From Antedon mediterranea (lineage: Eukaryota > Animalia > Echinodermata), in contig NC_092673.1 of NCBI RefSeq assembly GCF_964355755.1, positions 19,961,648 through 20,025,647 on the forward strand: a stretch of DNA of 64,000 nucleotides, read 5' to 3'. Under the pieces are notes generated by a model, which saw only the letters and a list, made by a program, of their open reading frames with translations, had not been told where the DNA came from and ran no database searches. Positions 1,386 to 44,396 of the stretch are shown here, one piece after another (position 1 is the first letter of the stretch; each line of letters opens with the position of its first letter). Both the position numbers and the translations under genes were made by a program.

Positions 1386-1458
1386 TTGGTTATCCGCAAC
1401 GAAGTTGCAGGATAACCTCTTGTGATTGTACGAAATCATCATCAACATCAACTTTTTA

Positions 1459-3056
1459 TTAGTTATCCGCATTCAGCGGATAACTCCTTGTAACTGTCCT
1501 GTTTCATCATCTTTTTTTTTTCTGTATTCTTCTTTCTTTCTGTCATTTTTGTGTCACGCGTAACTCAAAAACGCGTAAACATAACATTTTATAACTTAGT
1601 CAACATGTGGGCCTTCACGTGAAGTTGTGCACCTGCTATTGTGAATGACGTCAGAGTTGCGCAACGTGACTTACGCGCGTTTTTATGAATTTCGCGTATT
1701 TAACATAGATCGAAAACCATATAACATTTTAATTTGAAACTTAGAAAAACTTTAAGTTATATCTTGCGCTAACTGACTGTGGGAAAAAAAAGGCATGTTT
1801 CACACGAAGTGACGCGCGCACGCGCATTTAAAATTTCAAAATGCGAAAAATCAATTTCTAATCAACTTTCTACGCGTTTTATGTCATTTTGAGCATGTCA
1901 AAAATTCCCACACGAGCGCATATTTTTACGCGCGCTGTGCGCACGTAGCGTTGAAAACAATTTTTTTCTCGTGATTTATGTTTTTCCAGCCTTTTCAAGT
2001 ACTTTTAGCAACTTTTACACAATTTTGACTTAAAATTAACGTCATACGAGCACGTCGAATTGGATAATTTACGTACGTTTTTGATGAAAAAGTTCAAAAA
2101 TTCCTTAAAATTTGTCAAAATTTTACCTTTTTTAAAACAGTCTTAGTTTCTAAACTAAACGGTAAAAGTTATTTTTATTACGTATTCTGGAAGATGATGA
2201 GTTGTAGATATCGTATCATGCATCAATATTGCTAACAGGACATTTTGACGTCATCGTATGGCCATGCGAATATAAAATATAGGATTTTTGTATCTTTCGT
2301 CATAGAGCATCACATTTAATAGAGCGCATCTCCACTTACCCTTTTTTCATTTTAACCCAGATTTTGATATTTTCTAGGTCAATCAACTACCTTTCGCATG
2401 GGTTAAAAATATTTTAATTTTTTTGACTTCATCATGTCTAAAAATGTAAATAACGTGGGTCACTAATTTTCATCTTTACAGTAACTTTCAATCTGTTATA
2501 GCTCGTCAGAATAAAAAGCGGTAATCATGATTAAAACGTTTTCTGGAAGCTATTGTATTGTAAATACGAATTCATGTCAACATTTTTCCAATCCGACGTT
2601 GTGACGTCATCATATGGCCAGTTGAATAAAAAAAGTCGTATTTTCATCTTTTGCGTCATAGTTCATCACATTTAAAAGAGCGCGCATCTATATTTTACGT
2701 ATTCTAATTTCTTCTACATGTTAATATGTTATTACTGAGATAATATCCTTCCGAAATTGCTATCTTAGTGTTTCATTTTGATACCGTCGCCATGTTAAAA
2801 ATAGGAATAAACGGGGGTCCCGTAATTTCACCTATTTTACACTGTATGTAATATGTATACAGATTATACTGTTTCAAGTACTATATACTATATGACACAA
2901 AATTGACAGAATTCAGCACTAACAACATATCATATTCATCAGTTCAGGTCATAATGCCATAATCTTTTTCTGTGTGGAATATTCCAACGTATGACGTGCA
3001 CGTGGCGTTTGTCGTGCGGATAACTAACTCGTCAAAGTGACGAGTTACATGTCTAG
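1459..3056 (+). mobile_element. Intact HINE, subfamily C, preceded by an orphan D-like head (1388-1417)
   Basis: Head AGTTATCCGCATTCAGCGGATAACT at 1461; tail TGCGGATAACT + hairpin + CTAG at 3053-3056. Confidence 0.88.
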
Positions 3057-4637
3057 TTAGGTGATCATTTAGAATAAAATGATCACCTATTGTTATTGTA
3101 TGAAATCTTTATTTTTATTTTTTTTCTTTCTGTACACTTTTTGTGTAACAAATATCTCAAAAAGTTGAATAACAATGATCACAAAAATTTCACAATGTCT
3201 TTCAAATACTTTAACTTAGCCATAATAAGCTTTTCAGCGTGATCACTGACCCGTGACGTCACGTATACGCCATTTTGTGAAATCACATTATCAATCATAT
3301 ATCCATAATTCATTATCACATATTTATGAAATTTACTACACGTAAACTTCAGGTCAAGGGTAAAAATATTAGCAAATAAAAACGTGCGCGCACGTAGGTT
3401 TATGCGCGTGAAATCGCGCATTAAAAATTTAAAAAGCTCAAAATTACGTTTTAATCAATTTAGAGCATGAATTAGGCCATTTGCGTGTTTCAAAAAATTA
3501 CTGCGCAAAAAAATTATTTTGCGCGCGCGATACTTACAAAGTGTAAAAATTGCAATTTTTTATACAAATCGCATTCTATTCACCATCCTTAGTACATTCA
3601 CCAAATTTGAGTCAGTTCCGACTTAAAATAACGCTATACGAGCAGGTTAAAAATGACAAAATGCGCAAATTAATTGCATCAAAGTGATGAAAATGGTGAA
3701 AAATAAGGCCTTTTTAAAATGAATATAACTCTTCAGAATGGCAGGTGACCCCCAATTTTTTTAACTTATTCGGGAAGCCATTGGGTTGTAGATACATATT
3801 CATGTACACATTAGATGTACAAAATGGTATGACGTCATCAAATGGCCACTTGAATTTAAAAATTAGGAATTTTTATCTTTTTGTGAGGGTTATCACATTC
3901 AATAGAGCGCATCTCCGTTATTTGAGCCCGATTTTCGCACAACTTTTAGTATGTGCTTGCTCAATTAATTATTCTTCTAATGAGTTGTCAAAATTTTTAT
4001 TTTGATGACGTCATCACGCGTAAAAACTTGAATAACCTAGGTCGTGTAATTTCAGCTACACCATACATTTGAATATCTTATAGCTCTTCAGAATTAAAGG
4101 TGACCTTGAAGATTATAACTTATTATGAAAGCTGATGAAATGTAGATATGAATTCATATTAAAATTAAGCCTATCGGATGTTGTGATGTTATCATATGGC
4201 CAGTTGAATTTAAAAAGTAGTTTTTAAATTTCTTTAGTCAAAGTTATACAAATTTCAAAGACCGCGCATTGCGCTTCTACGTGTCAAATTTTCTTCCAAT
4301 CCTTATATTTATTTGCTCATTTCATTATCTTTCGAAATTGTCATCTTCGAGTTTATTTTGAAAATTGCATCATACCAAAAAATTAGAACACGATATGAGT
4401 CCCGTATTTTCACCTATGCTACACTGTATATAGATATACAGTATATACTGTACATATTGTATGGCATATAATAGGCACAACTCAGCACTATAAGCGTATG
4501 CATCATGTCATAGGATGGCGTACATTAACTTTTTACGATGGTATGTTAACGTACGTGCATGTTTAAAAAGTGTTAATTTCATTAAAATTATAAAAATGAT
4601 CACCTATAATTCGTCAAAGTGACGAATTAAATTCTAG
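3057..4637 (+). mobile_element. Intact HINE, subfamily B
   Basis: Head AGGTGATCATTTAGAATAAAATGATCACCT at 3059; tail ATGATCACCT-AT-AATTCGTCAAAGTGACGAATT-AAATTCTAG. Confidence 0.88.
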
Positions 4638-4753
4638 TTAGGTGATCATTTAGAATAAAATGATCACCTATTGTTATTGTACAAAATCTTTATTGTTATT
4701 AGGTGATCATTTAGAATAAAATGATCACCTATTGTTATTGTACAAAATCTTTA

Positions 4754-5965
4754 TTGGTTATCCGCACTTGGCGGATAACCTCTTGTTATTGTCAGGATCT
4801 TTTTTTTTTTCTTTTTTTTTTTTTTCTATATTCTTCTTTCTTTCCACGAATTTTGTTGCTAGTGTATCTCTAAATCTTCTTAACATAACATTGTATAACT
4901 TTATGAGAAGATTGATCTCTATTTGAAGATGTCGTAATAAGGTTTTCGGTACCGTCCGAGTTGCGCAGCGTAAGTTACGCGCGATTTTATGAATTTCGCG
5001 TATTTAATTTTGATCGAAAACTATTAAACCATTTAAATTGAAACTTGGCGGAAGTTTAATTTATATCATGCGCTAACTTTCTATGGAGAGAAAATGGCAT
5101 GTTTTACAGAAAGTTACGCGCGCACGCGCGTTTAAAATTTCAAAATGCGAAAAATCAATTTCTAATCAACTTTCTACGCGTTTCATGTCATTTTGAGCAT
5201 TTCAAAAATTCCCACGCGTGCGCAATTTTTTTACGCGCGCGTACGCACGTGGCACAAAAACATCTTTTTTTTGCTTGATTTTTGTTTTATCAGCCTTTTA
5301 TAGTAAATATACCAATTTTCAATCAATTTCGACTTAAAATCACGTCATACGAGCACGTAGAATTGAACAATTTACGCCGTTTTTTATGAAAAAGTTCAAA
5401 AATTCGTGAAAATTATGGCTTTTTAAAAAAAGTCATAGATTCTAAACTACGTGGTGAACTTTTTAAAAATTACAGATTCTGGAAGTAGATGAGTTGAAGA
5501 TATCGAATCATGCATGGATATGGCTAACCGGACATTTTGACGTCATCGTATGGCCACTCGAATATAAAATATAGAGTTTTTGTCTCTTTCGCATAGCTCA
5601 TCACATTTAATAGAGCGCATCTTCACTTATCCGTATTCCATTTCCCCCCATTTTGATATATTGTCTAGGCCAATCAATTATCTTTCGCATAATCTACCAT
5701 TTTTGAAATTGTGATGACGTCATCATGTCCAAAAGCGTCAATAACTTGGGTCCCTTATTTTCACCTATTCTGCACTGTATGTAGTACGTATACAGAATAT
5801 AGTGTATACCGTATATACTTTGACGTGACACAAAATAGAGAGCGCGCTAACATTTTTTCAATGGCATAATCGTTTTTCTGCGCGCAATATTCTAACGTAT
5901 AACGTGCACGTGGCCTTTGCGCTGCGGATAACCTAACTCGTCCGAAGTGACGAGTTCAAATCTAG
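4754..5965 (+). mobile_element. Intact HINE, subfamily A, nested behind two orphan B heads (4640, 4701)
   Basis: Head GGTTATCCGCACTTGGCGGATAACC at 4756; tail TGCGGATAACC-T-AACTCGTCCGAAGTGACGAGTT-CAAATCTAG. Confidence 0.88.
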
Positions 5966-8900
5966 TTATTATTGTTATTCTTCTTTCTGTACACTTTTTG
6001 TTCGTCAAATATCTCAAAAAGTTGAATAGCAATAATAACAAAAAATTCACAATGTCTTTCAAATACTTTAACTTAGCCATAATAAGCTTTTCAGCGTGAT
6101 CACTCATCCGTGACGTCACGTATACGCCATTTTGTGAAATCACATTATCAATCATATATCCATAATTCATTATCACATATTTATGAAATTCACTACACGT
6201 AAACTTCAGGTCAAGGGTAAAAATATTAGCACGTAAAAACGCGCGCGCACGTAGGGTCATGCGTGTGGAATCGCGCAGTAAAAATTTAAAAAGCTCAAAA
6301 TTACATTTTAATCAATTTAGAGCATGAATTAGGCCATTTGTGTGTTTCAAAAAATTACTGCGCAAAAAAAATATTTTGCGCGCGCGATACTTACAAAGCG
6401 TAAAAATTGCAATTTTTTTATACAAATCGCGTTCTACTCACCATCCTTAGTACATTCACCAAATTTGAGTAAGTTCCGACTTAAAATAACGCTATACGAG
6501 CAGGTTAAAAATAACAAAATGCGCAAATTAATTGCATCAAAGTGCTGAAAATGGTGAAAAATAAGGCCTTTTTAAAATGAATATAACTCTTCAGAATGGC
6601 AGGTGACCCCCAATTTTTTTAACTTATTCGGGAAGACATTGGGTTGTAGATACATATTCATGTACACATTAGACGTACAAAATGGTATGACGTCATCAAA
6701 TGGCCACTTAAATTTAAAAATTAGTAATTTTTATCTTTTTGTGTGGGTTATCACATTCAATAGAGCGCATCTCCGTTATTTGAGCCCGATTTTTGCCAAA
6801 ATTTTAGTATGTGCTTACTCAATTAATTATCTTTCTCAAGAGTTGTCAACATTTTTATTTTGATGATGTCATCATGTGTAAAAACTTTAATAACCAAGGT
6901 CGTATAATTTCAGCTACACCATACATTTGAATATGTTATAGCTCTTCAGAATTAAAGGTGACCTTGAAGATTATAACTTATTTTGAAAGCTGATGAAATG
7001 TAGATATGAATTCATATAAAAATTAGGCCTATCGGATGTTGTGACATTATGAAATGGTCAGTTTAAGTTAAAAGGTAGTTTTTTTCTCTCTTTCGTCAAA
7101 TTTATACAAATTTCAAAGAGCGCGCATTGCGCTTCTACGTGTCAAATTCTCTTCCAATCCTTATATTTATTTGCTCAATTCATTATCTTTCGAAATTGTC
7201 ATCTTCGAGTTTATTTTGATAATTCCATCATACCGAAAAATTTGAACATGATGTGGGTCCAGTAATTTCACCTATGCTACACTGTATATAGATATACAGT
7301 ATATACTGTACATAATAGGTACAACTCAGCACTATAAGTGTATATGCATCATGTCATAGGATGGCGTACATCAACTTTTTACGATCGTATGTTAACGTAC
7401 GTGAATGTTTAAAAAATGATAATTTCATTAAAATGATAAAAATGATCACCTATAATTCGTCAAAGTGACGAATTAAATTCTAGTTAGGTGATCATTTAGA
7501 ATAAAATGATCACCTATTGTTATTGTACAAAATCTTTATTGTTATTATTCTTCTTTCTGTACACTTTTTGTTCATCAAATATCTCAAAAAGTTGAATAGC
7601 AATGATCACAATAATTTCACAATGTCTTTCAAATACTTTAACTTAGCCATAATAAGCTTTTCAGCGTGATCACTCATCCGTGACGTCACGTATACGCCAT
7701 TTTGTGAAATCACATTATCAATCATATATCCATAATTCATTATCACATATTTATGAAATTCACTACACATAAACTTCAGGTCAAGGGTAAAAATATTAGC
7801 AAATAAAAACGCGCGCGCACGTAGGGTTAAGCGCGTGGAATCGCGCATTAAAAATTTAAAAAGCTCAAAATTACGTTTTAATCAATTTAGAGCATGAATT
7901 AGGCCATTTGCGTGTTTCAAAAAATTATTGCGCAAAAAAAATATTTTGCGCGCACGATACTTACAAAGCGTAAAAATTGCAATTTTTTTATACAATTCGC
8001 ATTCTACTCACCATCCTTAGTACATTCACCAAATTTGAGTAAGTTCCGACTTAAAATAACGCTATACGAGCAGGTTAAAAATAACAAAATGCGCAAATTA
8101 ATTGCATCAAAGTGCTGAAAATGGTGAAAAATAAGGCCTTTTTAAAATGAATATAATTCTTCAGAATGGCAGGTGACCCCCAATTTTTTTAACTTATTCG
8201 GGAAGCCATTGGGTTGTAGATACATATTCATGTACACATTAGACGTACAAAATGGTATGACGTCATCAAATGGCCACTTCAATTTAAAAATTAGTAATTT
8301 TTATCTTTTTGTGTGGGTTATCACATTCAATAGAGCGCATCTCCGTTATTTGAGCCCGATTTTCGCCGAAATTTTAGTATGTGCTTACTCAATTAATTAT
8401 TTTTCTCAAGAGTTGTCAATATTTTTATTTTGATGATGTCATCATGTGTAAAAACTTTAATAACCAAGGTCGTGTAATTTCAGCTACACCATACATTTGA
8501 ATATGTTATAGCTCTTCAGAATTAAAGGTGACCTTGAAGATTATAATTTATTATAAAAGCTGAATAAATGTAGATATGAATTCATATAAAAATTAAGCCT
8601 ATCGGATGTTGTGATGTTATCATATGGCCAGTTGAAGTTAAAACGTTGTTTTTAAATTTCTTTAGTCAAAGTTATACAAATTTCAAAGAGCGCGCATTGC
8701 GCTTCTACGTGTCAAATTATCTTCCAATCCTTATATTTATTTGCTCAATTCATTATCTTTCGAAATTGTCATCTTCGAGTTTATTTTGATAATTCCATCA
8801 TACCAAAAAATTTGAACATGATGTGGGTCCCGTAATTTCACCTATGCTACACTGTATATAGATATACAGTATATACTGTACATATTGTATATGACACATA

Positions 8901-11900
8901 ATAGGCACAACTCAGCACTATAAGCGTATATCAGGATGGTATACATCAACATTTTCCTATTGTATGTTAACGTACGTGCATGTTTAAAAAAATATTATGT
9001 CAGTAAAGCGATAAAAATGATCACCTATAATTCGTCAAAGTGACGAATTAAATTCTAGTTATTCTTCTTTCTGTACACTTTTTGTTCGTCAAATATCTCA
9101 AAAAGTTGAATAGCAATGATCACAAAAATTTCACAATGTCTTTCAAATATTTTAACTTAGCCATAATAAGCTTTTCAGCGTGATCACTCATCCGTGGCGT
9201 CACGTATACGCCATTTTGTGAAATCACATTATCAATCATATATCCATAATTTATTATCACATATTTATGAAATTCACTACACGTAAACTTCAGGTCAAGG
9301 GTAAAAATATTAGCAAGTAAAAATGCCCGCGCACGTAGGGTCATGCGTGTGGAATCGCGCAGTAAAAATTTAAAAAGCTCAAAATTACGTTTTAATCAAT
9401 TTAGAGCATGAATTAGGCCATTTGCGTGTTTCAAAAAATTACTGCGCAAAAAAAATATTTTGCGCGCGCGATACTTACAAAGCGTAAAAATTGCAGTTTT
9501 TTTATACAAATCGCGTTCTACTCACCATCCTTAGTACATTCACCTAATTTGAGTAAGTTCCGACTGAAAATAACGCTATACGAGCAGGTTAAAAATAACA
9601 AAATGCGCAAATTAATTGCATCAAAGTGCTGAAAATGGTGAAAAATAAGGCCTTTTTAAAATGAATATAACTCTTCAGAATGGCAGGTGACCCCCAATTT
9701 TTTTAACTTATTCGGGAAGCCATTGGGTTGTAGATACATATTCATGTACACATTAGACGTACAAAATGGTATGACGTCATCAAATGGCCACTTCAATTTA
9801 AAAATTAGTAATTTTTATCTTTTTGTGTGGGTTATCACATTCAATAGACCGCATCTCCGTTATTTGAGCCCGATTTTCGCCGAAATTTTAGTATGTGCTT
9901 GCTCAATTAATTATCTTTCTCAAGAGTTGTCAACATTTTTATTTTGATGACGTGATCATGTGTAAAAACTTTAATAACCAAGGTCGTGTAATTTCAGCTA
10001 CACCATACATTTGAATATGTTATAGCTCTTCAGAATTAAAAGTGACCTTGAAGATTATAATTTATTATGAAAGCTGATTAAATGTAGATATGAATTCATA
10101 TAAAAATTAAGCCTATCGGATGTTGTGATGTTATCATATGGCCAGTTGAAGTTAAAACGTTGTTTTTAAATTTCTTTAGTCAAAGTTATACAAATTTCAA
10201 AGAGCGCGCATTGCGCTTCTACGTGTCAAATTATCTTCCAATCCTTATATTTATTTGCTCAATTCATTATCTTTCGAAATTGTCATCTTCGAGTTTATTT
10301 TGATAATTCCATCATACCAAAAAATTTGAACATGATGTGGGTCCCGTAATTTCACCTATGCTACACTGTATATAGATATACAGTATATACTGTACATATT
10401 GTATATGACACATAATAGGCACAACTCCGCACTATAAGCGTATAACAGGATGGTATACATCAACATTTTCCTATTGTATGTTAACGTACGTGCATGTTTA
10501 AAAAATATTAATGTAAGTAAAGCGATAAAAATGATCACCTATAAATATTTTAACTTAGCCATAATAAGCTTTTCAGCGTGATCACTCATCCGTGGCGTCA
10601 CGTATACGCCATTTTGTGAAATCACATTATCAATCATATATCCATAATTTATTATCACATATTTATGAAATTCACTACACGTAAACTTCAGGTCAAGGGT
10701 AAAAATATTAGCAAGTAAAAATGCCCGCGCACGTAGGGTCATGCGTGTGGAATCGCGCAGTAAAAATTTAAAAAGCTCAAAATTACGTTTTAATCAATTT
10801 AGAGCATGAATTAGGCCATTTGCGTGTTTCAAAAAATTACTGCGCAAAAAAAATATTTTGCGCGCGCGATACTTACAAAGCGTAAAAATTGCAGTTTTTT
10901 TATACAAATCGCGTTCTACTCACCATCCTTAGTACATTCACCTAATTTGAGTAAGTTCCGACTGAAAATAACGCTATACGAGCAGGTTAAAAATAACAAA
11001 ATGCGCAAATTAATTGCATCAAAGTGCTGAAAATGGTGAAAAATAAGGCCTTTTTAAAATGAATATAACTCTTCAGAATGGCAGGTGACCCCCAATTTTT
11101 TTAACTTATTCGGGAAGCCATTGGGTTGTAGATACATATTCATGTACACATTAGACGTACAAAATGGTATGACGTCATCAAATGGCCACTTCAATTTAAA
11201 AATTAGTAATTTTTATCTTTTTGTGTGGGTTATCACATTCAATAGACCGCATCTCCGTTATTTGAGCCCGATTTTCGCCGAAATTTTAGTATGTGCTTGC
11301 TCAATTAATTATCTTTCTCAAGAGTTGTCAACATTTTTATTTTGATGACGTGATCATGTGTAAAAACTTTAATAACCAAGGTCGTGTAATTTCAGCTACA
11401 CCATACATTTGAATATGTTATAGCTCTTCAGAATTAAAAGTGACCTTGAAGATTATAATTTATTATGAAAGCTGATTAAATGTAGATATGAATTCATATA
11501 AAAATTAAGCCTATCGGATGTTGTGATGTTATCATATGGCCAGTTGAAGTTAAAACGTTGTTTTTAAATTTCTTTAGTCAAAGTTATACAAATTTCAAAG
11601 AGCGCGCATTGCGCTTCTACGTGTCAAATTATCTTCCAATCCTTATATTTATTTGCTCAATTCATTATCTTTCGAAATTGTCATCTTCGAGTTTATTTTG
11701 ATAATTCCATCATACCAAAAAATTTGAACATGATGTGGGTCCCGTAATTTCACCTATGCTACACTGTATATAGATATACAGTATATACTGTACATATTGT
11801 ATATGACACATAATAGGCACAACTCCGCACTATAAGCGTATAACAGGATGGTATACATCAACATTTTCCTATTGTATGTTAACGTACGTGCATGTTTAAA

Positions 11901-11970
11901 AAATATTAATGTAAGTAAAGCGATAAAAATGATCACCTATAATTCGTCAAAGTGACGAATTAAATTCTAG
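5966..11970 (+). mobile_element. Run of subfamily B units: headless 5966-7483, intact 7484-9058, headless 9059-11970 with a 1398-bp internal tandem duplication
   Basis: B bodies and tails; head present only at 7486; identical short ORFs recur 1398 bp apart (9426/10824, 9687/11085). Confidence 0.88.
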
Positions 11971-12089
11971 TTAGGTGATCATTTAGAATAAAATGATCAC
12001 CTATTGTTATTGTACAAAATCTTTATTGTTATTAGGTGATCATTTAGAATAAAATGATCACCTATTGTTATTGTATAAAATCTTTATTA

Positions 12090-13681
12090 TTAGTTATCCG
12101 CACTCAGCGGATAACTCCTTGTAACTGTCCTGTTTCATCATCTTTTTTTTTTTTCTGTATTATTCTTTCTTTCTGTCATTTTTGTGCAGAGCATATCTCA
12201 AAAAGGTGTAAAATTAACATTTCATAACTTTGTCAACATATGGGTATTCACCTGAAGTTGTGCTTTTCTATTTCTGAATGACGTCAGAATTGCACAACAT
12301 GACTTACGCGCGTTTTAACGAATTTCGCGTATTTAACATACATCGAAAACCATATAACAATTTAAATTGAAACTTAACAAAAGTTTTAGTTATATCTTGC
12401 GCTAACTGACTTTGTAAAAAAAATGGCATGTTTTACACGAAGTTACGCGCGCACGCGCGTTTAAAATTTCAAAACGCGAAAAATCAATTTCTAATCCACT
12501 TTCTACGCGTTTCATGTCATTTTGAGCAGGTAAAAAATTCCCACGCGTGCGCATTTTTTTACGCGCGCCGTGCGCACGTAGCGTTGAAAACAATTTTTTT
12601 CACGTGATTTATGTTTTTCCAGCCTTTTTTAGTAATTTTACCAACTTTTAAACGATTTAGACTTAAAATTACGTCATACGGGCACGTCGAATTGGATAAT
12701 TTACGTGGGTTTTTGATGAAAAAGGTAAAAAATTCGTTAAAATTTGTCAAAATTATGCCTTTTTTTAAACAGTCGTAATTTCTAAACTGGACGGTCAACT
12801 TTTTGTGGATGACATATTCTATAAGTTGATGAGGTGTAGATATCGGATCATGTAATAATATGGCTAACCGGACATTGTGACGTCATCGTATGGCCACGCG
12901 AATATAAAATATAGGATTTTTGTATCTTTCATCATAGCGCATGACATTTAATAGAGCGCATCTCCAATTATCTGTTTTCCATTTTTACCCCGATTTTTAT
13001 ATTATCTAGGTCAATCAACTATCTTTCGTATGAGTTAAAAATATTTTAATTTTTATGACGTCATCATGTCTAAAAATGTAAATAACGTGGGTCACTTATT
13101 TTCGTCTTTACAGTAAATTTCAATCTGTTATAGCTCGTCAGAATAAAACGTGATAATCATGATTAAAACGTTTTCTGGAAGCTATTGGATTGTAGATACG
13201 AATTTATGTAAACATTTTGCCAATCGGATGTTGTGACGTCATCATATGACCAGTTAAATAAAAAAAGTCGTATTTTCATCTTTTGCGTCATAATTCATCA
13301 CATTTAAAAGAGCGCGCATCAATATTTTACGTATTTAAATTTCTTCTACACATTAATATGTTGTTGCCGAGATAATTTCCTTCCGAAATTGCTATCTTAG
13401 TATTTCATTTTGATACCGTCGCTATGTTAAAAATTGGAATAAATGGCGGGTCCAGTCATTTCACCTATTCTACACAGTATGTAATATGTATACAGATTAT
13501 ATTGTATATATAATATGACACAAAATAACAGAATTCAGCAATAACAACATATCATATTATTCTTCAGTTCAGGTCATATTGCCACAATCTTTTTCTGTGT
13601 GCAATATTCTAACGTATGACGTCTACGTGGCCTTTGTCGTGCGGATAACTAACTCGTCAAAGTGACGAGTTACATGTCTAG
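12090..13681 (+). mobile_element. Intact HINE, subfamily C, nested behind two orphan B heads (11973, 12034)
   Basis: Head AGTTATCCGCACTCAGCGGATAACT at 12092; C tail with CTAG at 13678-13681. Confidence 0.87.
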
Positions 13682-16600
13682 TTATTATTCTTCTTTCTGT
13701 ACACTTTTTGTTCGTCAAATATCTCAAAAAGTTGAATAGCAATGATCACAAAAAATTCACAATGTCTTTCAAATACTTTAACTTAGCCATAATAAGCTTT
13801 TCAGCGTGATCACTCATCCGTGACGTCACGTATACGCCATTTTGTGAAATCACATTATCAATCATATATCCATAATTCATTATCACATATTTATGAAATT
13901 CACTACACGTAAACTTCAGGTCAAGGGTAAAAATATTAGCAAGTAAAAACGCGCGTGCACGTAGGGTCATGCGTGTGGAATCGCGCAGTAAAAATTTAAA
14001 AAGCTCAAAATTACGTTTTAATCAATTTAGAGCATGAATTAGGCCATTTGCGTGTTTCAAAAAATTACTGCGCAAAAAAAATATTTTGCGCGCGCGATAC
14101 TTACAAAGCGTAAAAATTGCAATTTTTTTATACAAATCGCGTTCTACTCACCATCCTTAGTACATTCACCAAATTTGAGTAAGTTCCGACTGAAAATAAC
14201 GCTATACGAGCAGGTTAAAAATAACAAAATGCGCAAATTAATTGCATCAAAGTGCTGAAAATGGTGAAAAATAAGGCCTTTTTAAAATGAATATAACTCT
14301 TCAGAATGGCAGGTGACCCCCAATTTTTTTAACTTATTCGGGAAGCCATTGGGTTGTAGATACATATTCATGTACACATTAGACGTACAAAATGGTATGA
14401 CGTCATCAAATGGCCACTTCAATTTAAAAATTAGTAATTTTTATCTTTTTGTGTGGGTTATCACATTCAATATTGCGCATCTCCGTTATTTGAGCCCGAT
14501 TTTCACCGAAATTTTAGTATGTGCTTACTCAATTAATTATCTTTCTCAAGAGTTGTCAACATTTTTATTTTGATGATGTCATCATGTGTAAAAACTTTAA
14601 TAACCAAGGTCGTGTAATTTCAGCTACACCATACATTTGAATATGTTATAGCTCTTCAGAATTAAAGGTGACCTTGAAGATTATAATTTATTATGAAAGC
14701 TGAATAAATGTAGATATGAATTCATATAAAAATTAAGCCTATCGGATGTTATGATGTTATCATATGGCCAGTTGAAATTAAAACGTTGTTTTTAAATTTC
14801 TTTAGTCAAAGTTATACAAATTTCAAAGAGCGCGCATTGCGCTTCTACGTGTCAAATTATCTTCCAATCCTTATATTTATTTGCTCAATTCATTATCTTT
14901 CGAAATTGTCATCTTCGAGTTTATTTTGATAATTCCATCATACCAAAAAATTTGAACATGATGTGGGTCCCGTAATTTCACCTATGCTACACTGTATAAA
15001 GATATACAGTATATACTGTACATATTGTATATGACACATAATAGGCACAACTCAGCACTATAAGCGTATATCAGGATGGTATACATCAACATTTTCCTAT
15101 TGTATGTTAACGTACGTGCATGTTTAAAAAATATTAATGTCAGTAAAGCGATAAAAATGATCACCTATAATTCGTCAAAGTGACGAATTAAATTCTAGTG
15201 AGAAATTGTTTTTGTTAAAAAAAAAATTTCTTCGCAATTTCTTTCTGTACAGATTTTGTTTAACAAATATCTCAAAAAGTTTATTGTCAATGATTACCAA
15301 AATTTCACAATGTCTTTCAAATACTGTAACTTAGTCCTAATAAGCTTTTCAGCGTGATCACTCATCCGTAACGTCATTTATACGCGATTTTGTGAAATCA
15401 CATTATCAATCATATCTCCATAATTCATTATCACATATTAATGAAATTCACTACACGTAAACTTTAGGTCAAGGGTAAAAATATTAAGAAATAAAAACGC
15501 GCGCGCACGTAAGGTTAAGCGCGTGAAATCGCGCGTTAAAAATTTAAAATGCTCAAAATTACGTTTTGATCAATTTAGAGCATGAATTAGGCCATTTGCA
15601 TGTTTAAAAAATTACTGCGCAAAAACACGTTTTTGCGCGTGCGTACATAGAAAGCGTAAAAAATAACAATTTCTTATACAAATTGCGTTCTACTCATCTT
15701 CCATAGTACATTCACCAAATTTGAGTTCATTTCGACTTAAAATAGTGCTATACGAGCACGTCAAAAATGACAAAATGCGCACATTAATTATACAAAAGTG
15801 CTAAAAATGGTAAAAATTAAGGCCTTTTTAAAACGAATATAACTCTTCTGAATGGCAGGTGACCCCCAATTTTTTTAACTTATTATGGTAGCCAATGAGT
15901 TGTAGATATAAATGTATATACACATTAGACATACAAAATGGTATTACGTCATCAAATGGCCACTTGAATTTAAAAATTAGGATTTTTCTCCGTTTTGTGT
16001 AGGTTATCACATTCAATAGAGCGCATCTCCGCTATTTGAGCTCGATTTTTGCACAAATTTCAGTGTGTGCTTGCTTAATTATTTATCTTTTTCATAAGTT
16101 GTCAGTGTTTTCATTTTGATGACGTCATCATGCATAAAAACTTGAATAACGTAGGTCGTGTAATTTCACCTTCGCCGTAAATTTGAATATCTTACAGCTC
16201 TTCAGAATTGAAGGTTACCTTGATGATTATAATTTATTATGAAAGCTGATGAAATGTAGATATGAATTCATATAAAAACCAAGCCTATCGGATGTTGTGA
16301 CGTTAACATATTGCCAGATGAAGTTAAAAAGTAGTTTTTTCTTCTTTTTCGTCAAAGTTATACACATTTCAAAGGCCGCGCACGGCGCTTCTACGTGCCA
16401 GATTCTCTTCCAATTCTTATATTTATTTGCTCAATTCATTATCTTTCGAAATTGTCATCTTTATGTTTATTTTGATAATTCCATCATACCAAAAAATTAG
16501 AACATGATGTGTGTCCCGTAATTTCACCTATGCTACACTGTATATAGATATACAGTATATACTGTACATATTGTATATGGCATATAATAGGCACAACTCA

Positions 16601-16753: not shown

Positions 16754-16967
16754 TTTCACTTATTTTACACTGTATGTATGTATACATATTATACTATACT
16801 ATATGACACAAAATTGACAGAATTCAGCACTAACAAGATATCATATTCTTCAGTTCAGGTCATAATGCCATAATCTTTTTCTGTGTGCAATATTCTAACG
16901 TATGACGTGCACGTGGCGTTTGTCGTGCGGATAACTAACTCGTCAAAGTGACGAGTTACATGTCTAG
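16754..16967 (+). mobile_element. Isolated 3'-terminal ~214-bp fragment of a subfamily C element
   Basis: Aligns by eye to ~2826-3056; complete tail with CTAG at 16964-16967. Confidence 0.8.
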
Positions 16968-26272: not shown

Positions 26273-26373
26273 TTCTGTATTATTAGTTATCCGCTTAGTA
26301 GCGGATAACTCCTTGTAATCGTCCTGTTTCATCAAATTTTTTGGTTATCCGCAACTTATGAAGTTGCGGATAA

Positions 26374-29260
26374 TTGGTTATCCGCAACTTATGAAGTTGC
26401 GGATAACCCTTGTTATTGTAAATATCTTTTTTTTTTTTTTCATCTTCTTTATTCTTCTTTCTTTCCCGGAATTTTGTTGCATGCATATCTCTCATCCTTG
26501 TCAACATATGATTTTACAACTTGGTCATCATATAGATATTTATCTGAAGTTGTGCACCTCCATATTTTGAATGACGTCAGAGTTGCGCAACGTGACTTAC
26601 GCGCGATTTTATGAATTTCAATGATTGATCATAGGATAAAAAATAAAAGTCATTTTGAATTGACACTTAGTGAAAATTTAAGTTACTAGATGGCACGCTC
26701 GCTTCGCTCGCGTACCATCTAGGTCGTGCCCACAGATGGTTCTCGAATACACAGTATTTCCAGCGAGAAAAAAATGGAGATTTCAAATGTACGTACTGCA
26801 GGACTATAATACATTGTCGTTTACAGAAACGAATAAATATACACAATGATTTATTTAGTCAACCAAAATTAGCACCCTGGGAATTACTTCCGAGAGAGAA
26901 ATAAAATGAGTCATTTTTTTTTTATTTGGACTCATTTAAACAAACCCAATTTGTGTTTTGTATGTAACATTAGGCCTAAGGGTTGAGGGATGGGGGAAGA
27001 AGATAGGTACAAAGAGGAAACATTTTAAAATATATTCTTATCCACTCAGTAACGAAATAATGTTTTTAATGTTTTAGGCCTATAAATAATATACCACTAA
27101 ATACAGTAAAACATTTACGATTTAATACTTTGTTAAAACTCTCACTGTCATAGTCGATTGAAATAGTAAAGTACATGTAACGATACACCACTACGTACGT
27201 TTATATATTTTTAAATTATTAATTAATACAAACGTTGAGAAGCAACTGTCAATAATAACGTTTATTTATTTGTATATTATATGTTTATAATCTAACAGTA
27301 GGGCCTACCCACATTCACAGTAATAAAGTTTATTTGTATATTTGTTTATATTATATCTAACAGTACCAACACTCACAGTAAGAAATTTGCGATTCAAATT
27401 GCGATCAAAAGTGGTTAATACCTTAACAGTATTGTACAGCATTGCAATACTATTTATGTTTATTCTCCAAGGGGGCCCATAAATCTAAATCTATACCTCT
27501 ATGGTTAAACCAAATAATTTGGAATGTTCCATTCATCACAAATCAATACATTTGTAAAAACGTATATTACATGTATCAAAATAGCATTTTTTAAAGAAAA
27601 TCGGCCTGTCTTCAACATTATGATGCTGTACTCGAACAGTTCAACCGGTTTTCAGCTATTAAAAATAATTATCGTAGGAGGAGATAGGAAAATGCGAAGT
27701 GTCCTCGTATTATTGTGTGCGGGTATTTTTCAAATTGACATCCATTAGACAGTGTATACCACGATCGGAAAACACCCCTATTTGGGGCAAATCGTTGAAC
27801 CTAAATTCGTTTTAATCGTCAATAACTAATTATCGAACTCAATTTAATTAGTAAACAGGGTTACATCAGGTGGTTAAAATTAATACCGAAAGTACGAACC
27901 AACTTTATATACCATCGAGTAAACATTCTAGAAATAACGCACGATTTACCGATTTTTGCCCTTACGTAAATTTATATATAGATATCAAGGGAAAACTTTC
28001 TATGGATTAAAAATGGCATGTTTCACAAGAAGTTACGCGCGCACGCGCATTTAAAATTTTAAAATGCGCAAAATTAATTTCTAATCAACTTTCTACGCTG
28101 ATCATGACATTTTTAGCATGTCAAAAATTCCCACGCGCGCGAAAAAAATTACGCGTAAGGTGCGCACGGAGCATGAAAATCATGTGTTTTTTTCTTGAAT
28201 TATGATTTTACAGCCTTTCTTAGTCATTTTAAAAGAGATTTACATCATTTCAAATTAAAATGACGTCATACGAACACGTTGATTTAGACAATTTGCGTGC
28301 GTTTTAGTTGCAAAAGTGACAAAATATTGTCAAAATTATGCCTACTTTGAATCTATTATAGCTCCTCAGGATCAACCGTTACCCCCAATTTTTTTAATTT
28401 AATATGTAAGCAGAGATGTTGTAGATATGAATTCATGCAGAATCTTTACCCCTCGGATGTTATGACGTCATCGTATGGCCACACGAATGTAAAATATTGG
28501 ATTTTTGACTGTTTCGCTATTGCTCATTACATTAAATAGAGCGCATATCGCTTATACGTATTCCATTTCCTAAGATATTTTAATACTGTCTAGGTCAACA
28601 ACTATCTTTCGCATGAGTTAAAAATATTTAAATTTTTATGACGTCATCATGTCTAAAAATGTAAATAACGTGGGTCACCTATTTTCATCTTTACAGTAAA
28701 TTTCAATCTGTTATAGCTCGTCAGAATAAAAAGTGATAATCATGATTAAAACGTTTTCTGGAAGCTATTGGATTGTAGATACGAATTCATGTGAACATTT
28801 TGCCAATCAGATGTTGTGACATCATCATATGGCCAGTTGAATTCAAAAAGTCATATTTTCATCTCTTGCGTAAAAGTTCATTGCGTTTAAACGAGAGCGC
28901 ATCTCACTTTTACGTGCCCAAAATTCTTCAAATTTGTTTTAATGTAATTATTTAGATAATTATCTTCTAAAATTGTTATCTTTATATGTCAATTTGATGA
29001 TGTCATCGTGTTAATAATTAGTTTTAAAAGATGTGTCTCGTAATTTCGTCTATGCTACACTGTATAATATATACAGTTTATTTGTAAAATACTGTAATAT
29101 GGTGTATGCTACATAATAGGTACAATTCAGCACTGTAAACACATTTATTTCATGTCATAGGATGGCATAATAATTGTCGAGGTTCATATAGTTTAAATTA
29201 TGTGCATGTTGCGTTTGCGCGGATAACCCGAACTCGTCAAAGTGACGAGTTCAAATCTAG
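26374..29260 (+). mobile_element. HINE, subfamily D, interrupted by a canonical Helitron
   Basis: Head GGTTATCCGCAACTTATGAAGTTGCGGATAACC at 26376; tail GCGGATAACCCG-AACTCGTCAAAGTGACGAGTT-CAAATCTAG; body matches 42691-44321 once 26686-27982 is removed. Confidence 0.87.
26686..27982 (-). mobile_element. Non-autonomous canonical Helitron (Helitron1 type), 1297 bp
   Basis: Minus strand starts TCTATATATAAA and ends CTAG with a GC-rich 3' hairpin (26686-26722). It is inserted between A and T with no TSD; the empty site AAGTTA|TATCAAGGG resembles sister units. Confidence 0.9.
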
Positions 29261-29335
29261 TTTTTTTCTGTATTATTGGTTATCCGCTCTTGGCGGATAA
29301 CCTTTTGTTATTGTCAGGATCTTTTTTTTTTTTTT

Positions 29336-32300
29336 TTGGTTATCCGCACTTGGCGGATAACCCCTTGTTATTGTCAGGATCTTTTTTTTTTTCTTTTTTT
29401 TTTTTTTCTATATTCTTCTTTCTTTCCACGAATTTTGTTGCTAGTGTATCTCTAAATCTTCTTAACATAACATTGTATAACTTTATGAGAAGATTGAACT
29501 CTATTTGAAGATGTCGTAATAAGGTTTTCGGTCTCGTCCGAGTTGCGTAGCGTAAGTTACGCGCGATTTTATGAATTTCAATGATTGATCATAGATTAAA
29601 AACCAAAAGTCATTTTGTATTGAAACTTGGTGAAAATTTAAGTTATATCACGCGCAAACTTTCTATGGATTAAAAATGGCAGGTTGCGCAGAAAGTTACG
29701 CGCGCACATGCGTTTAAAATTTCAAAATGCGAAAAATCAACTTCTAATCAATTTTCTACGCGTTTCATGTCATTTTGAGCATTTCAAAAATTCCCACGCT
29801 TGCGCACTTTTTTACGCGCGCGTGCGCACGTAGCGCAAAAACATCTTCTTTTTTTTAGATTTTTGTTTTTCCAGTCTTTTCTAGTAAATTTACCAACTTT
29901 CAAACAATTTGGACTTAAAATCACGTCATACGAGCACGTAGAATTGAACAATTTGCGCGCGTTTTTTATGAAAAAGTTCAAAAATTCGTGAAAATTATGC
30001 CTTTTTTTAAAAAATCATAGATTCTAAACTCCGTGGTGAACATTTTTAAAATTTCAGATTCTGGTAGTAGATGAGTTGTAGATATCAAATCATGTATCGA
30101 TATGGCTAACCGTACATTGTGACGTCATAGTATGGCCACTCGAATATAAAATATAGGATTTTTGTCTCTTTCGCATAACTCATCACATTTAATAGAGCGC
30201 ATCTCCACTTATCCGTATTCCATTTCTCCCCATTTTGTTATATTATCTAGGCCAATCAATTACCTTTCACATGATTTACCATTTTTAAAATTGTGATGGC
30301 GTCATCATGGTCAAAAGCGTCATTAACTTTGGTCACTTATTTTCACCTATTCTGAACAGTATGTAGTACGTATACAGTACATGTGTTATACCGTATATAT
30401 TTAGACGTGACACAAAATAGAGAGCGCACTAACATTTTTTCAATGGCATAATCGTTTTTCTGCGCGCAATATTCTAACTTATGTGTCATGCGCGTGGCTT
30501 TTGCGATGCGGATAACCTAACTCGTCCGTAGTGACGAGTTCAAATCTAGTTGGTTATCCGCACTTGGCGGATAATTGGTTATCCGCACTTGGCGGATAAC
30601 CCCTTGTTATTGTCAGGATCTTTTTCTATGTTCTTCTTTCTTTCCACGATTTTTGTTCGCAGCGTATCTCTAATTCTGGCCAACATATGATTGTATAACT
30701 TTGTCAAAAGATTGCCCTGTAGCTGTAGATGTGCAAGAAACTTTTTTTTTCAAATTTCGAGTCGCGCAGCGTAAGTTACGCGCGATTTTGTGAATTTCAA
30801 TGACTGATCATAGAATAAAAACTAAAAGTCGCTTGGTATTGAAACTTGGTGAAAGTTTAAGTCATATAACGCGCAAACTTTCTATGGATTAAAAATGGCA
30901 TGTTTAACAAAAAGTTACGCGCGCACGCGCGTTTAAAATTTCAAATTGCGAAATATCCATTTCTAATCAACTTTCTACGCGTTTCAGGGCATTTTGAGCA
31001 TTTCAAAAATTCCCAGGCGTGCGCAATTTTTTTACGCGCGCGTGCGCACGTAGCGCAAAAACATCTTTTTTTTGTTTGATTTTTGTTTTTCCAGCCTTTT
31101 CTAGTAAATTTACCAATTTTCAATCAATTTCGACTTAAAATTACGTCATACAAGCACGTCGAATTGAACAATTTGCGCGCGTTTTTGATGAAAAAGTTCA
31201 AAAATTTGTGAAAATTATGCCTTTCTTTAAAAAGTCATAGATTCTAAACTCCGTGGTGAACATTTTTAAAATTTCAGATTCTGGAAGTAGATGAGTTGTA
31301 GATATCGAATCATGCATCGATATAACTAACCGGAAATTGTGACGTCATCGTATGGCCATTCGAATATAAAATATAGGATTTTTGTCTCTTTCGCATAGCT
31401 CATCACATTTAATAGAGCGCATCTCCATTTATCCGTATTCCATTTCCCCCCATTTTGTTATATTGTCTAGGCCAATCAATTATCTTTCGCATGATCTACC
31501 ATTTTTTAAATTGTGATGACGTCATCATGTCCAAAAGCGTCAATAACTTGGGTCCCTTATTTTCACCTATTCTGCACTGTATGTAGTACGTATACAGAAT
31601 ATAGTGTATACCGTATACACTTTGACGTGACGCAAAATAGAGAGCGCACTGACATTTTTTCAATGGCGTAATCGTTTTTCTGCGCGCAATATTCTAACGT
31701 ATGACGTGCACGTGGCCTTTGCGCTGCGGATAACCTAACTCGTCCGAAGTGACGAGTTCAAGTCTAGTTGGTTATCCGCACTTGGCGGATAACCCCTTGT
31801 TATTGTCAGGATCTTTTTTTTTCTTTTTTTTTTTCTATCTTATTCTTCTTTCTTTCCCGGAATTTTGTTCGCAGCGTATCTCTAATTCTGGCCAATATAA
31901 GATTGTGTAACTTTGTCATAAGATTGACCTCTAGCTGTAGATGTGCAGGACGTTTCGTTTTTTAACTTTAGAGTCGCGCAGCGTAAGTTACGCGCGATTT
32001 TATGAATTTCAATGATTGATCATAGCTTAGAAATCAAAAGTCATTTTGTAATGAAACTTGGTGAAAATTTAAGTCATATCAAGCGCAAACTTTCTATGGA
32101 TTAAAAATGGCAAGTTTGACAAAAAGTTACGCGTGCACGCGCGTTTAAAATTTCAAAATGCGAAAAATCAATTTCTAATCAACTTTCTACGCGTTTCATG
32201 TCATTTTGAGCATTTCAAAAATTCCCTTGCGTGCGCAATTTTTTTACGCGCGCGTGCGCACGTAGCCCAGAAACATCTTTTTTTTGCTTGATTTTTGTTT

Positions 32301-34312
32301 TTTCAGCCTTTTCTAGTAAGTTTATCAATTTTAAATCAATTTCGACTTAAAATCACGTCATACGAGCACGTAGAATTAAACAATTTGCGCGCAATTTTGA
32401 TGAAAAAGTTCAAAAATTTGTGAAAATTATGCCTTTTTTTAAACAGTCATAGATTCTAAACTACGTCGTAAACTTTTTTATATTTACATATTCTGGTAGT
32501 AGATGAGTTGTAGATATCGAATCATGTATCAATATGGCTATCAGGACATTGTGACGTCATCGTATGGCCACTCGAATATAAAATATAGGATTTTTTTCTC
32601 TTTCGTATAGCTCATCACATTTAATAGAGCGCATCTCCACTTATCCGTATTCCATTGCCCTCCATTTCTTTATATTGCCTATGTCAATCAATTATCTTTC
32701 GCATGATTCACCATTTTAAAAATTGTTATGACGTCATCATGTGCAAAAGCCTCAATAACTTTGGTCACTTATTTTCACCTATTCTGAACTGTATGTAGTA
32801 CGTATACGGTATATAGTGTATACCGTATACACTTTGACGTGACACAAAATAGAGAGCGCACTCACATTTTTTCAATGGCATAATCGTTTTTCTGCGCGCA
32901 ATATTCCAACGTATGACGTGCACGTGGCTTTAGGACTGCGGATAACCTAACTCGTCCGTAGTGACGAGTTCAAATCTAGTTGGTTATCCGCACTTGGCGG
33001 ATAACCCCTTGTTATTGTCAGGATCTTTTTTTTTTTTTTTTTTTTTTTTTTTCTATGTTATTCTTCTTTCTTTCCCTGAATTTTGTTGGCAGCGTATCTC
33101 AAATTCTGGCAAACAAAAGATTGTGTAACTTTTTCATAAGATTGACCTGTAGCTGTAGATGTGCAGGACGTTTCGTTTTTTGACTTTATAGTTGCGCAGC
33201 GTAAGTTACGCGCGTTTTTGTGATTTTTGCGTATTTAACATATATCAAAAACCAAAAAGCAATTTTAATTGAAACTTGGCAAAAGTGTAGTTTATATCAT
33301 GCGCTAACTTTCTATGGATTGAAAATCGCACTTTTCCATAAAGTTACGCGCGCACGCGCGTTTAAAATTTCAAAATGCGTAAAATCATTTTCTAATCAAC
33401 TTTCTACGCGTTTCAGGTCATTTTGAGCATTTCAAAAATTCCCACGCGTGCGCAAATTTTTTACGCGCGCGTGCGCACGTAGCGCAGAAACATCTTTTTT
33501 TTGCTTGATTTTTGTTTTTTCAGCCTTTTCTAGTAAATTTACCAATTTTCAATCAATTTCGACCTAAAATCACGTCATACGAGCACGTAGAATTGAACAA
33601 TTTGCACGCGTTTTTGATGAAAAAGTTCAAAAATTCGTCAAAATTATGCCTTTCTTAAAACCGTCATAAATTCTAAACTATGTGGTGAACATTTTTTAAA
33701 TTACATATTCTGGAAGTAGATGAGTTGTCTTTATCGAATCTTGCATTAATATGGCTAACTGAATATTATGACGTCATCGTATGGCCACTCGAATAAAAAA
33801 TATAGGATTTTTTTCTCTTTCGTCATAGCTCGTCACATTTAATAGAGCGCATCTCCACTTATCCGTATTCCATTTCCCTCAATTTTCTTATATTATCTAG
33901 GTCAATCAATTATCTTTCGCACGATTCACCATTTTCAAAATTGTGATGACGTCATCATGTTCAAAAGCGTCAATAACTTTGGTCACTTATTTTCACCTAT
34001 TCTGCACTGTATGTAGTACGTATACAGTATATAGTGTATACCGTATATACTCAGACGTGACGAAAAATAAAGAGCACACTGAAATTGTTTCAATGATTTA
34101 ATCGTCTTTCTGCGCGCAATATTTTAACGTATGACGTGCACGTGGCCTTTGCGCTGCGGATAACCTAACTTGTACGTAGTGACGAGTTCAAATCTAGTTG
34201 GTTATCCGCACTTGGCGGATAACCCCTTGTTATTGTCAGGATCTTTTTTTTTTTTTTTTTTTTTTTTTTTGGTTATCCGCACTTGGCGGATAACCCCTTG
34301 TTATTGTCAGAA

Positions 34313-34344
<32 letters not shown>

Positions 34345-42690: not shown

Positions 42691-44321
42691 TTGGTTATCC
42701 GCAACTAGTAAGTTGCGGATAACCCTTGTGATTGTAAATATCTTTTTTTAGTTGCGGATAACCCTTGTGATTGTAAATATCTTTTTTTTCATCTTCTTTG
42801 TTATTCTTCTTTCTTTCCCGGATTTTTGTGCGTCGCATATCTCTCATCCTTGTCAACATAAGATTGTATAACTTTGTCAAAAGATTGACCTGCAGCTGTA
42901 GATGTGCAAGAAACTTTGTTATATGACGTTAGAGTTGCGTTGCGTAAGTTACGCGCGATTTTATGAATTTCAATGATTCGTCATAGATTATAAACCAAAA
43001 GTCGTTTTGTATTGACACTTGATGAAAATTTAAGTCATATCAAGGGCAAACTTTCTATTGATTAAAAATGACATGTTTCACAAGAAGTTACGCGCGCACG
43101 CGCATTTAAAATTTCAAAATGCGCAAAATTAATTTCTAATCAACTTTCTACGCTGATCATGACATTTTTAGCATGTCAAAAATTCCCACGCGCGCGAAAA
43201 AAATTACGCGTAAGGTGCGCACGGAGCATGAAAATCATGTGTTTTTTTCTTGAATTATGATTTTACAGCCTTTCTTAGTCATTTTAAAAAAGATTTACAA
43301 CATTTCAAATTAAAATGACGTCATACGAACACGTTGATTTAGACAATTTGCGTGCCTTTTAGTTGCAAAAGTGACAAAATATTGTCAAAATTATGCCTAC
43401 TTTGAATCTATTATAGCTCCTCAGGATCAACCGTTACCCCCAATTTTTTTAATTTAATATGTAAGCAGATATGTTGTAGATATGAATTCATGCAGAATCT
43501 TTACCCCTCGGATGTTATGACGTCATCGTATGGCCACACGAATGTAAAATATTGAATTTTTGACTGTTTCGCTATTGCTCATTACATTAAATAGAGCGCA
43601 TATCGCTTATACGTATTCCATTTCCTAAGATATTTTAATACTGTCTAGGTCAACAACTATCTTTCGCATGAGTTAAAAATATTTTAATTTTTATGACGTC
43701 ATCATGTCTAAAAATGTAAATAACGTGGGTCACCTATTTTCATCTTTACAGTAAATTTCAATCTGTTATAGCTCGTCAGAATAAAAAGTGATCATCATGA
43801 TTAAAACGTTTTCTGGAAGCTATTGGATTGTAGATACGAAATCATGTAAACATTTTGCCAATCAGATGTTGTGATGTCATCATATGGCCAGTTAAATTCA
43901 AAAAGTCATATTTTCATCTCTTGCGTAAAAGTTCATTGCGTTTAAACGAGAGCGCATCTCTCTTTTACGTGCCCAAAATTCTTCAAATTTGTATTAATGT
44001 AATTAATTAGATAATTATCTTCTAAAATTGTTATTTTTGTATGTCAATTTCATGATGTCATCGTGTTAATAATTGGATTTAAAAGATGGGTCTCGTAATT
44101 CCGTCTATGCTACACTGTATATAACATATACAGTGTATTCTGTAAATACTGTAATATGATGTATGCTACAAAATAGGTACAATTCAGCACTGTAAAAATA
44201 TTTATTTCATGTCAAAGGATGGCATAATAATTGTCGAGGTTCATATAGTTAAGTATGTGCATGGATGCGTTTGAATTGCGCGGATAACCCGAACTCGTCA
44301 AAGTGACGAGTTCAAATCTAG
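42691..44321 (+). mobile_element. Intact HINE, subfamily D, with partial head duplication
   Basis: Head GGTTATCCGCAACTAGTAAGTTGCGGATAACC at 42693; D tail with CTAG at 44318-44321. Confidence 0.87.
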
Positions 44322-44365
44322 TTGGTTATCCGCACTTGGCGGATAACCCCTTGTTATTGTCAGGA

Positions 44366-44396
<31 letters not shown>

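Follow-up and report, generated by a model that had tools for sequence, protein, structure and literature searches.

The first 49,095 positions of the window, that is, of the whole 64,000-nucleotide stretch of DNA analysed, are occupied by a stack of non-autonomous Helentrons (HINEs) that all run in one direction, and whose start lies before the window. The stack holds 31 heads and 34 tails, every one of them on the forward strand (31/31 and 34/34), and its units are non-coding and 1.2-1.6 kb each. The families were named B, A1 (with A1b and A1c), A2 and A3, where A1 to A3 subdivide the A of an earlier A/B scheme. Each complete copy is built as TT, a head palindrome, a spacer of ~18 nt, a T tract, the body, a subterminal inverted repeat (subTIR), a hairpin and a terminal CTAG. 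The subTIR measures 13 bp in B, 11 bp in A2, 14 bp in A1 and 10 bp in A3; GCGGATAAC is common to A1, A2 and A3, and ATGATCACCT is found in B. The GAT-ACC core is the only part that A and B subTIRs have in common, and the hairpin and CTAG are common to all families. The head hairpins, formed by a 5′ subTIR that is palindromic as in HINEs, have stems of 10-13 bp, and the hairpins after the 3′ subTIR (n = 34) have stems of 8-10 bp. The 3′ subTIR starts 42-44 nt from the element's 3′ end, TT stands ahead of all 31 heads, and a T follows each of 33 CTAG ends.

These elements have subterminal inverted repeats of the HINE kind (~11-15 bp, with the 3′ copy ~38-60 nt from the end), and T-flanked ends, a T-rich target and no target duplication. 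In 1-52 kb, no frame reached 150 codons between two stops. In total, five of six HINE features were found (subTIRs, 5′ palindrome, 3′ stem-loop, T flanks and target, no coding), and we conclude that the array elements are HINEs, i.e., non-autonomous Helentrons. A canonical Helitron (HLE1; 5′ TC, no terminal inverted repeats) was ruled out by the TT/CTAG ends and the subTIRs, and the likeness to HLE1 is confined to the CTAG end and the W|T register. The bodies of all families contain internal repeats of ~170-350 nt and ~70% identity (e.g., 528-697 and 871-1042) that resemble the central repeats of HINEs. To the eye, the spacer of 18-20 nt that separates the head palindrome from the T tract seems conserved among families whose subTIRs differ, both in the window and in three metagenome contigs (L010-L012, see below). 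It starts with TTG and ends near GATC or GATT, and could be a true recognition element.

The features described next are on the forward strand unless stated otherwise. An orphan A3-like head at 1386-1460 carries an A1 element inserted 43 nt past its second arm (arm 2), and at 3057-3058 an A1 tail is joined exactly to a B head of a different subTIR class. The B tail at 4594-4637, with its 3′ subTIR, hairpin and terminal CTAG, makes an exact joint to the next TT-head. This is the first of two orphan B heads (4638-4698: TT, palindrome at 4640-4669, spacer and the left part of the T tract), whose body resumes at 9059. The second (4699-4753) was inserted 31 nt past arm 2 of the first, and its body resumes at 5966. 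A complete A2 element (4754-5965) follows as a cross-family insertion 25 nt past arm 2 of this second head. Beyond it lie a headless B body that completes the second orphan head (5966-7483), a complete B with an exact tandem joint to the tail at 7483 (7484-9058), which was used as the intact reference for a B head tract, and a headless B body that completes the first orphan head (9059-11970). The last of these contains an internal tandem duplication of 1.4 kb, 100% identical (9145-10544 = 10543-11942) and with breakpoints in mid-element; 9145-11942 is either a recent unequal exchange or an assembly artefact.

A second nest of B head, B head and A1 (11971-15198; gaps of 31 and 28) is closed by a headless B body at 13682-15198, and its first head (11973) is letter-identical to 4640-4700. 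At 16754-16967 the last 214 nt of an A1 body lie behind a B tail, ~1340 nt behind the head, and the junction at 16754 could be an insertion or a deletion. The stretch 26273-26410 consists of a tail, 10 host bases, an A1 orphan head and an A3 head that breaks off where arm 2 ends and then occurs again, with a 1-nt gap at 26376. The A2 cluster (29261-47883) has A2-in-A2 nests in poly-T at 29338, 34271, 35545 and 39162, and also holds tandem joints that are exact, a near-identical headless pair (40384/41536) and, at 30577, the second of the head repeats with a 1-nt gap. In both head repeats, which belong to two families (26343-26410 and 30552-30600), the repeat is exact from the 5′ TT to one base before the end of arm 2, and both copies of each have the same loop; they may reflect abortive initiation and restart. 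An A3 body harbours, on the other strand, a 1.3-kb insert (26686-27982) that is flanked by A|T and has TC at its 5′ end and a hairpin with CTAG at its 3′ end. Oriented opposite to the array, it looks like a non-autonomous canonical Helitron (HLE1).

The stack is followed by a degenerate headless body (49096-50740) that starts in a T tract, has patchy likeness to HINE bodies and lacks a tail. It is possibly the outermost host of the stack. From 49096 this body fades, without a tail, into the DNA ahead of a reversed open reading frame (ORF), and a large element that includes that ORF may carry the stack in its head tract (49096-61547). The ORF itself (52221-61547, reverse strand) is uninterrupted over 3108 codons, with the first Met at codon 4, and its Pfam matches are Herpes_teg_N, OTU, DUF6570, Helitron_like_N (Rep), PIF1 helicase and Exo_endo_phos. 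DUF6570 is described as a marker of HLE2, and Herpes_teg_N as typical of its subgroup b, in the part of the source available (PMC11417382). By its predicted domain layout the ORF is an HLE2/Helentron transposase (RepHel). A sixth HINE feature would be termini shared with an autonomous Helentron; no array-like head or tail was found around the ORF within the window and, since the termini of the ORF-bearing element were thus not located, its link with the array is putative. Direct repeats in two copies of ~380 and 344 nt flank the ORF (51347-52093 and 62573-63103). Further on, at 62279-62315, TCTAG-TT precedes a weak palindrome resembling a head, and then a T run; this might be a junction of the array kind that has decayed. 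The segment 63305-63893 consists of long MITE-like inverted repeats with several arms that are 90-97% complementary.

The original prediction was that both kinds of junction obey one rule, namely integration a short distance 3′ of a resident subTIR on the same strand. A census of the 31 heads gave 17 exact CTAG-TT-head joints, 2 heads preceded by a tail plus 10-15 host bases, 10 nested heads and 2 heads at 1 nt. The nine nested gaps that had been quoted (25, 26, 28, 31, 32, 35, 37, 43 and 46) were all present, exactly at their coordinates; counts start from the 10-nt arm, and A gaps measured from the 9-mer read 1 nt longer. The list was correct in its entries, but had omitted a further 31-nt case (12002-12034) and the gaps of 44, 50, 1 and 1. 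The first two of these belong to the inexact tail-preceded heads at 26285 and 29278, which are separated from the tail by 10-15 host bases, and the last two to the heads at 26376 and 30577, which lie 1 nt past a second arm and so fall outside the proposed 25-46 nt. The ten nested heads lie 25-47 nt past the second arm of a head (mean 34.0, SD 7.3 nt). The tandem spacing of 32 nt plus TT is right for B, A2 and A3, whereas A1 has 31 nt plus TT. Three of the longer gaps span poly-T, as had been proposed, but that at 1417-1461 spans a CATCAA-type repeat. Body T-runs were indeed almost unused: the 18 full copies contain 194 runs of at least 5 T, and a single family junction (16754) lies in a body.

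The mean nested gap of 34.0 nt (n = 10) equals the tail gap (34-35), which fits arm 2 acting as a false tail, but the position of the tract constrains this mean. The 17 tandem joints cannot be read as 17 measurements of a distance, because the tail gap is the fixed distance from subTIR to end, a matter of element anatomy. The excess at the head zone and the similar mean gap support the prediction, but a single rule for both junction types is not supported: tandem joints are exact and nested sites scatter. The reading as a whole, integration a short distance 3′ of a resident subTIR, is partly supported.

To rebuild the hosts, each inserted element was excised from its TT-head to CTAG. This rejoined orphan heads with headless bodies in last-in-first-out order in nine reconstructions. 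The empty site of 4640+9059 matched the intact copy at 7486 seamlessly across the joint. The reconstructions 4701+5966, 12034+13682, three A2 pairs and 26285+29261 fitted except in tract length, 1388+18500 was a loose fit, and one of the nine (11973+15199) did not fit. We conclude that nesting by insertion is real. The rejoining of heads with bodies also led us to reject slippage duplication of heads as a general source of the orphans. The two T's of an element can be assigned to either end, and because of this ambiguity insertion is at W|T or, equivalently, at T|T or T|C, without duplication. The four bases ahead of the last T at 14 non-tandem heads were TTAT (7), TTTT (5) or TAAT (2), all of which conform to T-N-W-T; at tandem heads they were TAGT in 17 of 17.

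Position was compared with T content by conditional-logit models in which every W|T site of the rebuilt hosts, on either strand, was a candidate. Of the sixteen sites modelled, 12 have a visible head; for the other 4, seen only from the headless side, an intact head was borrowed, and several of the host pairings were assumed. Outside the model were the exact joints (17) and the 1-nt repeats (2), along with the bodies at 15199, 46731 and 49096, which have unmapped starts, 41536 as a duplicate, and any body whose orphan had already been counted. Fifteen of the 16 mapped non-tandem sites fell 20-55 nt past arm 2 of a head, a zone that holds 3.0% of the W|T sites and that was defined after the data were seen, on a small sample. 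The −lnL was 105 for a uniform model, 61-67 for T fraction and 55 for the zone. T-run length alone, at 96-97, explains little and was rejected as the site determinant, so that the insertion zone goes beyond run length, as the original prediction had it. The 20-55 zone improved on T fraction plus the TTWT motif (p 1e-5 to 0.003; n = 15, post hoc), as did a 0-100 zone (p 5e-5 to 0.024; n = 15, post hoc), and the zone term helped in all 12 settings (with the possible copy 12034 dropped and motif terms added). T fraction added to motif and zone gave no gain (p 0.24-0.98; n = 15). The hot spot behind the head is thus a strong observation.

Composition by itself is the obvious competitor. According to this explanation, which we regard as rather unlikely, RepHel picks T-rich, easily melted TTWT DNA anywhere, and an element's own head pad is simply the best target. 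T fraction alone does recover most of the signal, and the best composition models come to within only 4-5 log-likelihood units of the positional one. In 17 of 18 copies no window is richer in T than the head tract, which also surpasses every A-rich window in richness. According to published accounts, available in part, HINEs have T-rich targets (PMC4067079, PMC7492417), and AT-rich 3′ flanks have been described for Helraiser (PMC4778049). As the zone coincides with the 30 nt richest in T in 17/18 copies, the subTIR, head palindrome, spacer and T tract travel together in the array. Yet position added beyond composition in 12/12 settings. In addition, the A2 bodies contain windows with 20-22 T of 30 that were never used as sites, although they are richer than the B pad (19), which has no run of five T. 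In B hosts, TTA|TY sites number 3-4 in the zone, 12-15 in the body and 8-11 on the other strand, with one at +7. All four B-host events (three if 12034 is a copy) were in the zone, and none was at the 20-24 other TTA|TY sites. The same explanation would have a pad on one strand fix both place and direction, and would treat tandem joints as pad reuse plus end joining, a proposal that we rate no higher; composition does not predict the 17 exact joints, which are at low-T sites.

The exact joints were analysed separately. Of the 19 heads preceded by a tail, 17 are joined to it exactly, and in 6 of these 17 exact joints the partners belong to different families (A1 to B in one case). Exact A2 neighbours (8 pairs) are 0.104 apart, compared with 0.106 for all pairs. 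A rolling-circle monomer concatemer was rejected, given that neighbours are ~10% apart and 6/17 joints are cross-family. Sixteen tails without a directly following head have 7-13 usable sites at 25-47 nt, so that equal use would place ~11% of events at the exact site; an exact joint begins 7 of 9 first sibling events (7 groups and 2 inexact siblings, parsed manually; p ~6e-6 under equal use). Since diffuse use of 25-47 nt would give only ~11% exact joints, exactness needs an end-specific process. The rightmost member had the smaller nearest-neighbour distance in five of six tandem groups, scored by hand; one pair is common to two of the groups, and the proxy fails in a nest where host 9059 is nearer its cluster than its child 5966. 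This proxy would favour addition at a resident tail. Shuffling of adjacencies, with near-identical duplicate pairs included, gave p values of 0.003 for A2, 0.024 for B and 0.65 for A1.

Could few targeting events and much copying account for these joints? One or two early nests would then have been multiplied as double-headed composites transposed, as rolling circles read through, and as the shared ends crossed over unequally; double-headed Helitron2 copies do transpose as units in Fusarium, according to the portion of the report available (PMC5148889). Copying has certainly taken place: the 100% 1.4-kb duplication (9145/10543), the 99% headless pair 40384/41536 and the identical heads 4640/11973 are duplicates, because of which the junctions are not all independent, and two heads (26376 and 30577) are repeated exactly from the 5′ TT. 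As the main source of the pattern, however, we consider copying improbable. The B and A2 orphans match headless bodies in last-in-first-out order, the donors vary (A1, A2, A3 and B) over at least 8 distinct positions, tandem neighbours differ by ~10% with 6 of 17 joints cross-family, and a crossover that produced the A1-to-B joint at 3059 would have to fall within ~5 shared bases. A single double-headed A2 master was also rejected, since the four A2-in-A2 children come from different parts of the tree and form no clade.

Related DNA was found elsewhere. The tail pattern retrieved three metagenome contigs (L010-L012) that have related bodies and other subTIR sequences. All four of their tails are followed by DNA of their own family, two by exact heads and two by bodies that resume in a T tract, in low-coverage assemblies that may favour repeated, high-copy joints. 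No subTIR was found within 75 nt upstream of the L010 and L012 heads (2 of 4 heads), the best matches having 2 and 4 mismatches of 9; the L010 head lies in a body and that of L012 at apparent host DNA. A subTIR upstream is therefore not required, and the body site 16754, the two 1-nt gaps and published solo HINE insertions also go against the subTIR as an obligatory anchor. Public contigs matching 1450-4645 numbered at least 24,705 (X4), at least 5,368 and at least 6,156 (X5 and X6, from one sample) and at least 852 (X1), which confirms that the families of the array are very common in public-run contigs. Among the matches listed was a joint of an A1 tail (3057) into an A1 T tract (1529). The full tail pattern had no match in viral contigs, a pattern scan of genome contigs likewise gave none, and a short pattern gave 9 single matches in viral contigs, which were taken as chance.

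We favour, at about even confidence, a reading in which RepHel engages the subTIR-bearing ends of resident copies, with an exact cut at the tail and a loose cut in the T tract behind the head. RepHel would load on these ends and use them as integration sites. In the exact mode, the resident end would be a site that RepHel naturally cleaves (at the tail CTAG|T, at the head the base ahead of TT), and strand transfer there would leave a zero-base joint in the same orientation, across families too. The Helraiser transposase cleaves both ends precisely in vitro, on single strands, as described in the available part of that study (PMC4778049), and this suggests that a resident end may be a ready substrate. 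In the loose mode, RepHel bound to a head would have no hairpin plus CTAG to fix the cut, which would fall at a TTWT site in an easily melted tract, 25-47 nt away. The head might be engaged because arm 2 is mistaken for the subTIR of a tail, or as a plain loading origin, and unequal exchange would add some duplicates. As each newcomer carries a fresh pad, the stack would feed itself. We counted in favour of this reading the hot spot, the exact cross-family joints, the metagenome repeats and the HLE1-like insert, which sits in a body and on the other strand; counted against it were the overlap of zone and T tract, the post hoc zone, the subTIR-free heads of L010 and L012, the junction at 16754 in a body, and the duplicates.

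A stricter version, which is possible though we hold it only tentatively, makes RepHel of this lineage a motif-guided integrase that binds the resident GAT-ACC core and cuts the same strand ~30 nt downstream. Under the same tentative version, the cut would be exact where hairpin plus CTAG follow and loose where they do not. The original prediction had also allowed that a complementary single-stranded end of the donor might recognise the resident subTIR; in this version the incoming 5′ end would pair with it and so set the site. The guide sequences of IS608 are a precedent for site choice by base pairing. Over 10-14 bp, arm 1 of the head is the complement of the subTIR, and a B subTIR precedes 5 of 6 B heads and an A subTIR 23 of 25 A heads, a family clustering that can also come from activity waves or local donors. 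Against such pairing, three junctions combine A with B (3059, 4756 and 12092) and have only the GAT-ACC core in common, arm 1 is tied up in a hairpin of its own (about −11 kcal/mol), and a fixed offset would be expected where a spread of 25-47 nt was found. It is very improbable that the donor end sets the site in this way.

Clustering, nesting and several 5′ ends of Helitron-like elements have been described without a cause, as far as the accessible literature goes. The array gives base-level sites that argue against T-run length and monomer concatemers, and defines substrates that can be tested directly. If resident ends steer RepHel, this would explain self-feeding repeat blocks in animal genomes and would suggest that rolling-circle integration can make use of landing pads. 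If the motif-guided version is true, a eukaryotic rolling-circle transposon would home to a pad that it carries itself and build ordered arrays of tens of kb, and RepHel could be steered by the placement of subTIRs. If composition suffices, the array is an elegant but unexceptional example of an element that brings its target along.

In the Helitron literature covered, with most subscription papers outside its scope and other sources available in part, no subTIR- or head-anchored site rule was found. The closest relatives in anatomy are HINE/DINE-1 elements such as the oyster Cg_HINE (PMC4067079, PMC7492417), which share the 5′ subTIR with an inverted repeat, a microsatellite-like tract behind it, a 3′ hairpin, a 3′ subTIR ~43 nt from the end, T at both ends, a T-rich target and no duplication; their clustering is mentioned in the same accounts. 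The array elements differ in that they end in CTAG and that the tract behind the head is the T-rich target itself, and the nested stack, the positional rule and the exact cross-family joints are not described in the portions of those accounts available. FoHeli1, a Helitron2, inserts into itself near the 5′ end, so that its first 31, 65, 73 or 85 nt are repeated and up to five termini are stacked (PMC5148889, PMC13342296). FoHeli1/2 insert after TNAT (PMC5148889), which matches the T-N-W-T of the array; the tail distance of 51 nt in FoHeli1, set beside the four head-repeat lengths, is a lead only for a ruler that holds across families. The fungal copies are dispersed composites, whereas the array keeps heads and headless bodies in a 49-kb nest, and the available text of the FoHeli1 reports proposes no subTIR-anchored cause.

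Precise CTAG-to-5′ head-to-tail junctions, an A|T target and an AT-rich 3′ flank are shared with Helraiser and tandem Helitron arrays (PMC4778049, PMC5876387). The arrays in those reports are credited to circles and read-through of one element, whereas the neighbours here differ by ~10% and in many cases come from different families. Maize Helitrons show a preference for one another, landing close to or within other copies (PMC3288121), and HelenXT233, a Xenopus HLE2, has two left ends that arose from nesting (PMC11417382), in both cases without a base-level hot spot in the descriptions available. For the Paramecium Helitrons, orientation has been proposed to come from a strand-specific target (PMC13085455). 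AAV Rep78/68 at AAVS1 and TrwC at oriT are HUH nucleases that integrate at a resident copy of their own binding and nick site (PMC6049929); these are viral and plasmid enzymes with biochemical proof, whereas the mechanism proposed for the array is drawn from genome anatomy and has a loose second mode. Published already, in the sources as available, are the HINE anatomy, T-rich targets and self-insertion with stacked 5′ ends. What the array adds is a base-level, head-proximal hot spot beyond run length together with exact cross-family end joints, repeated in related families.
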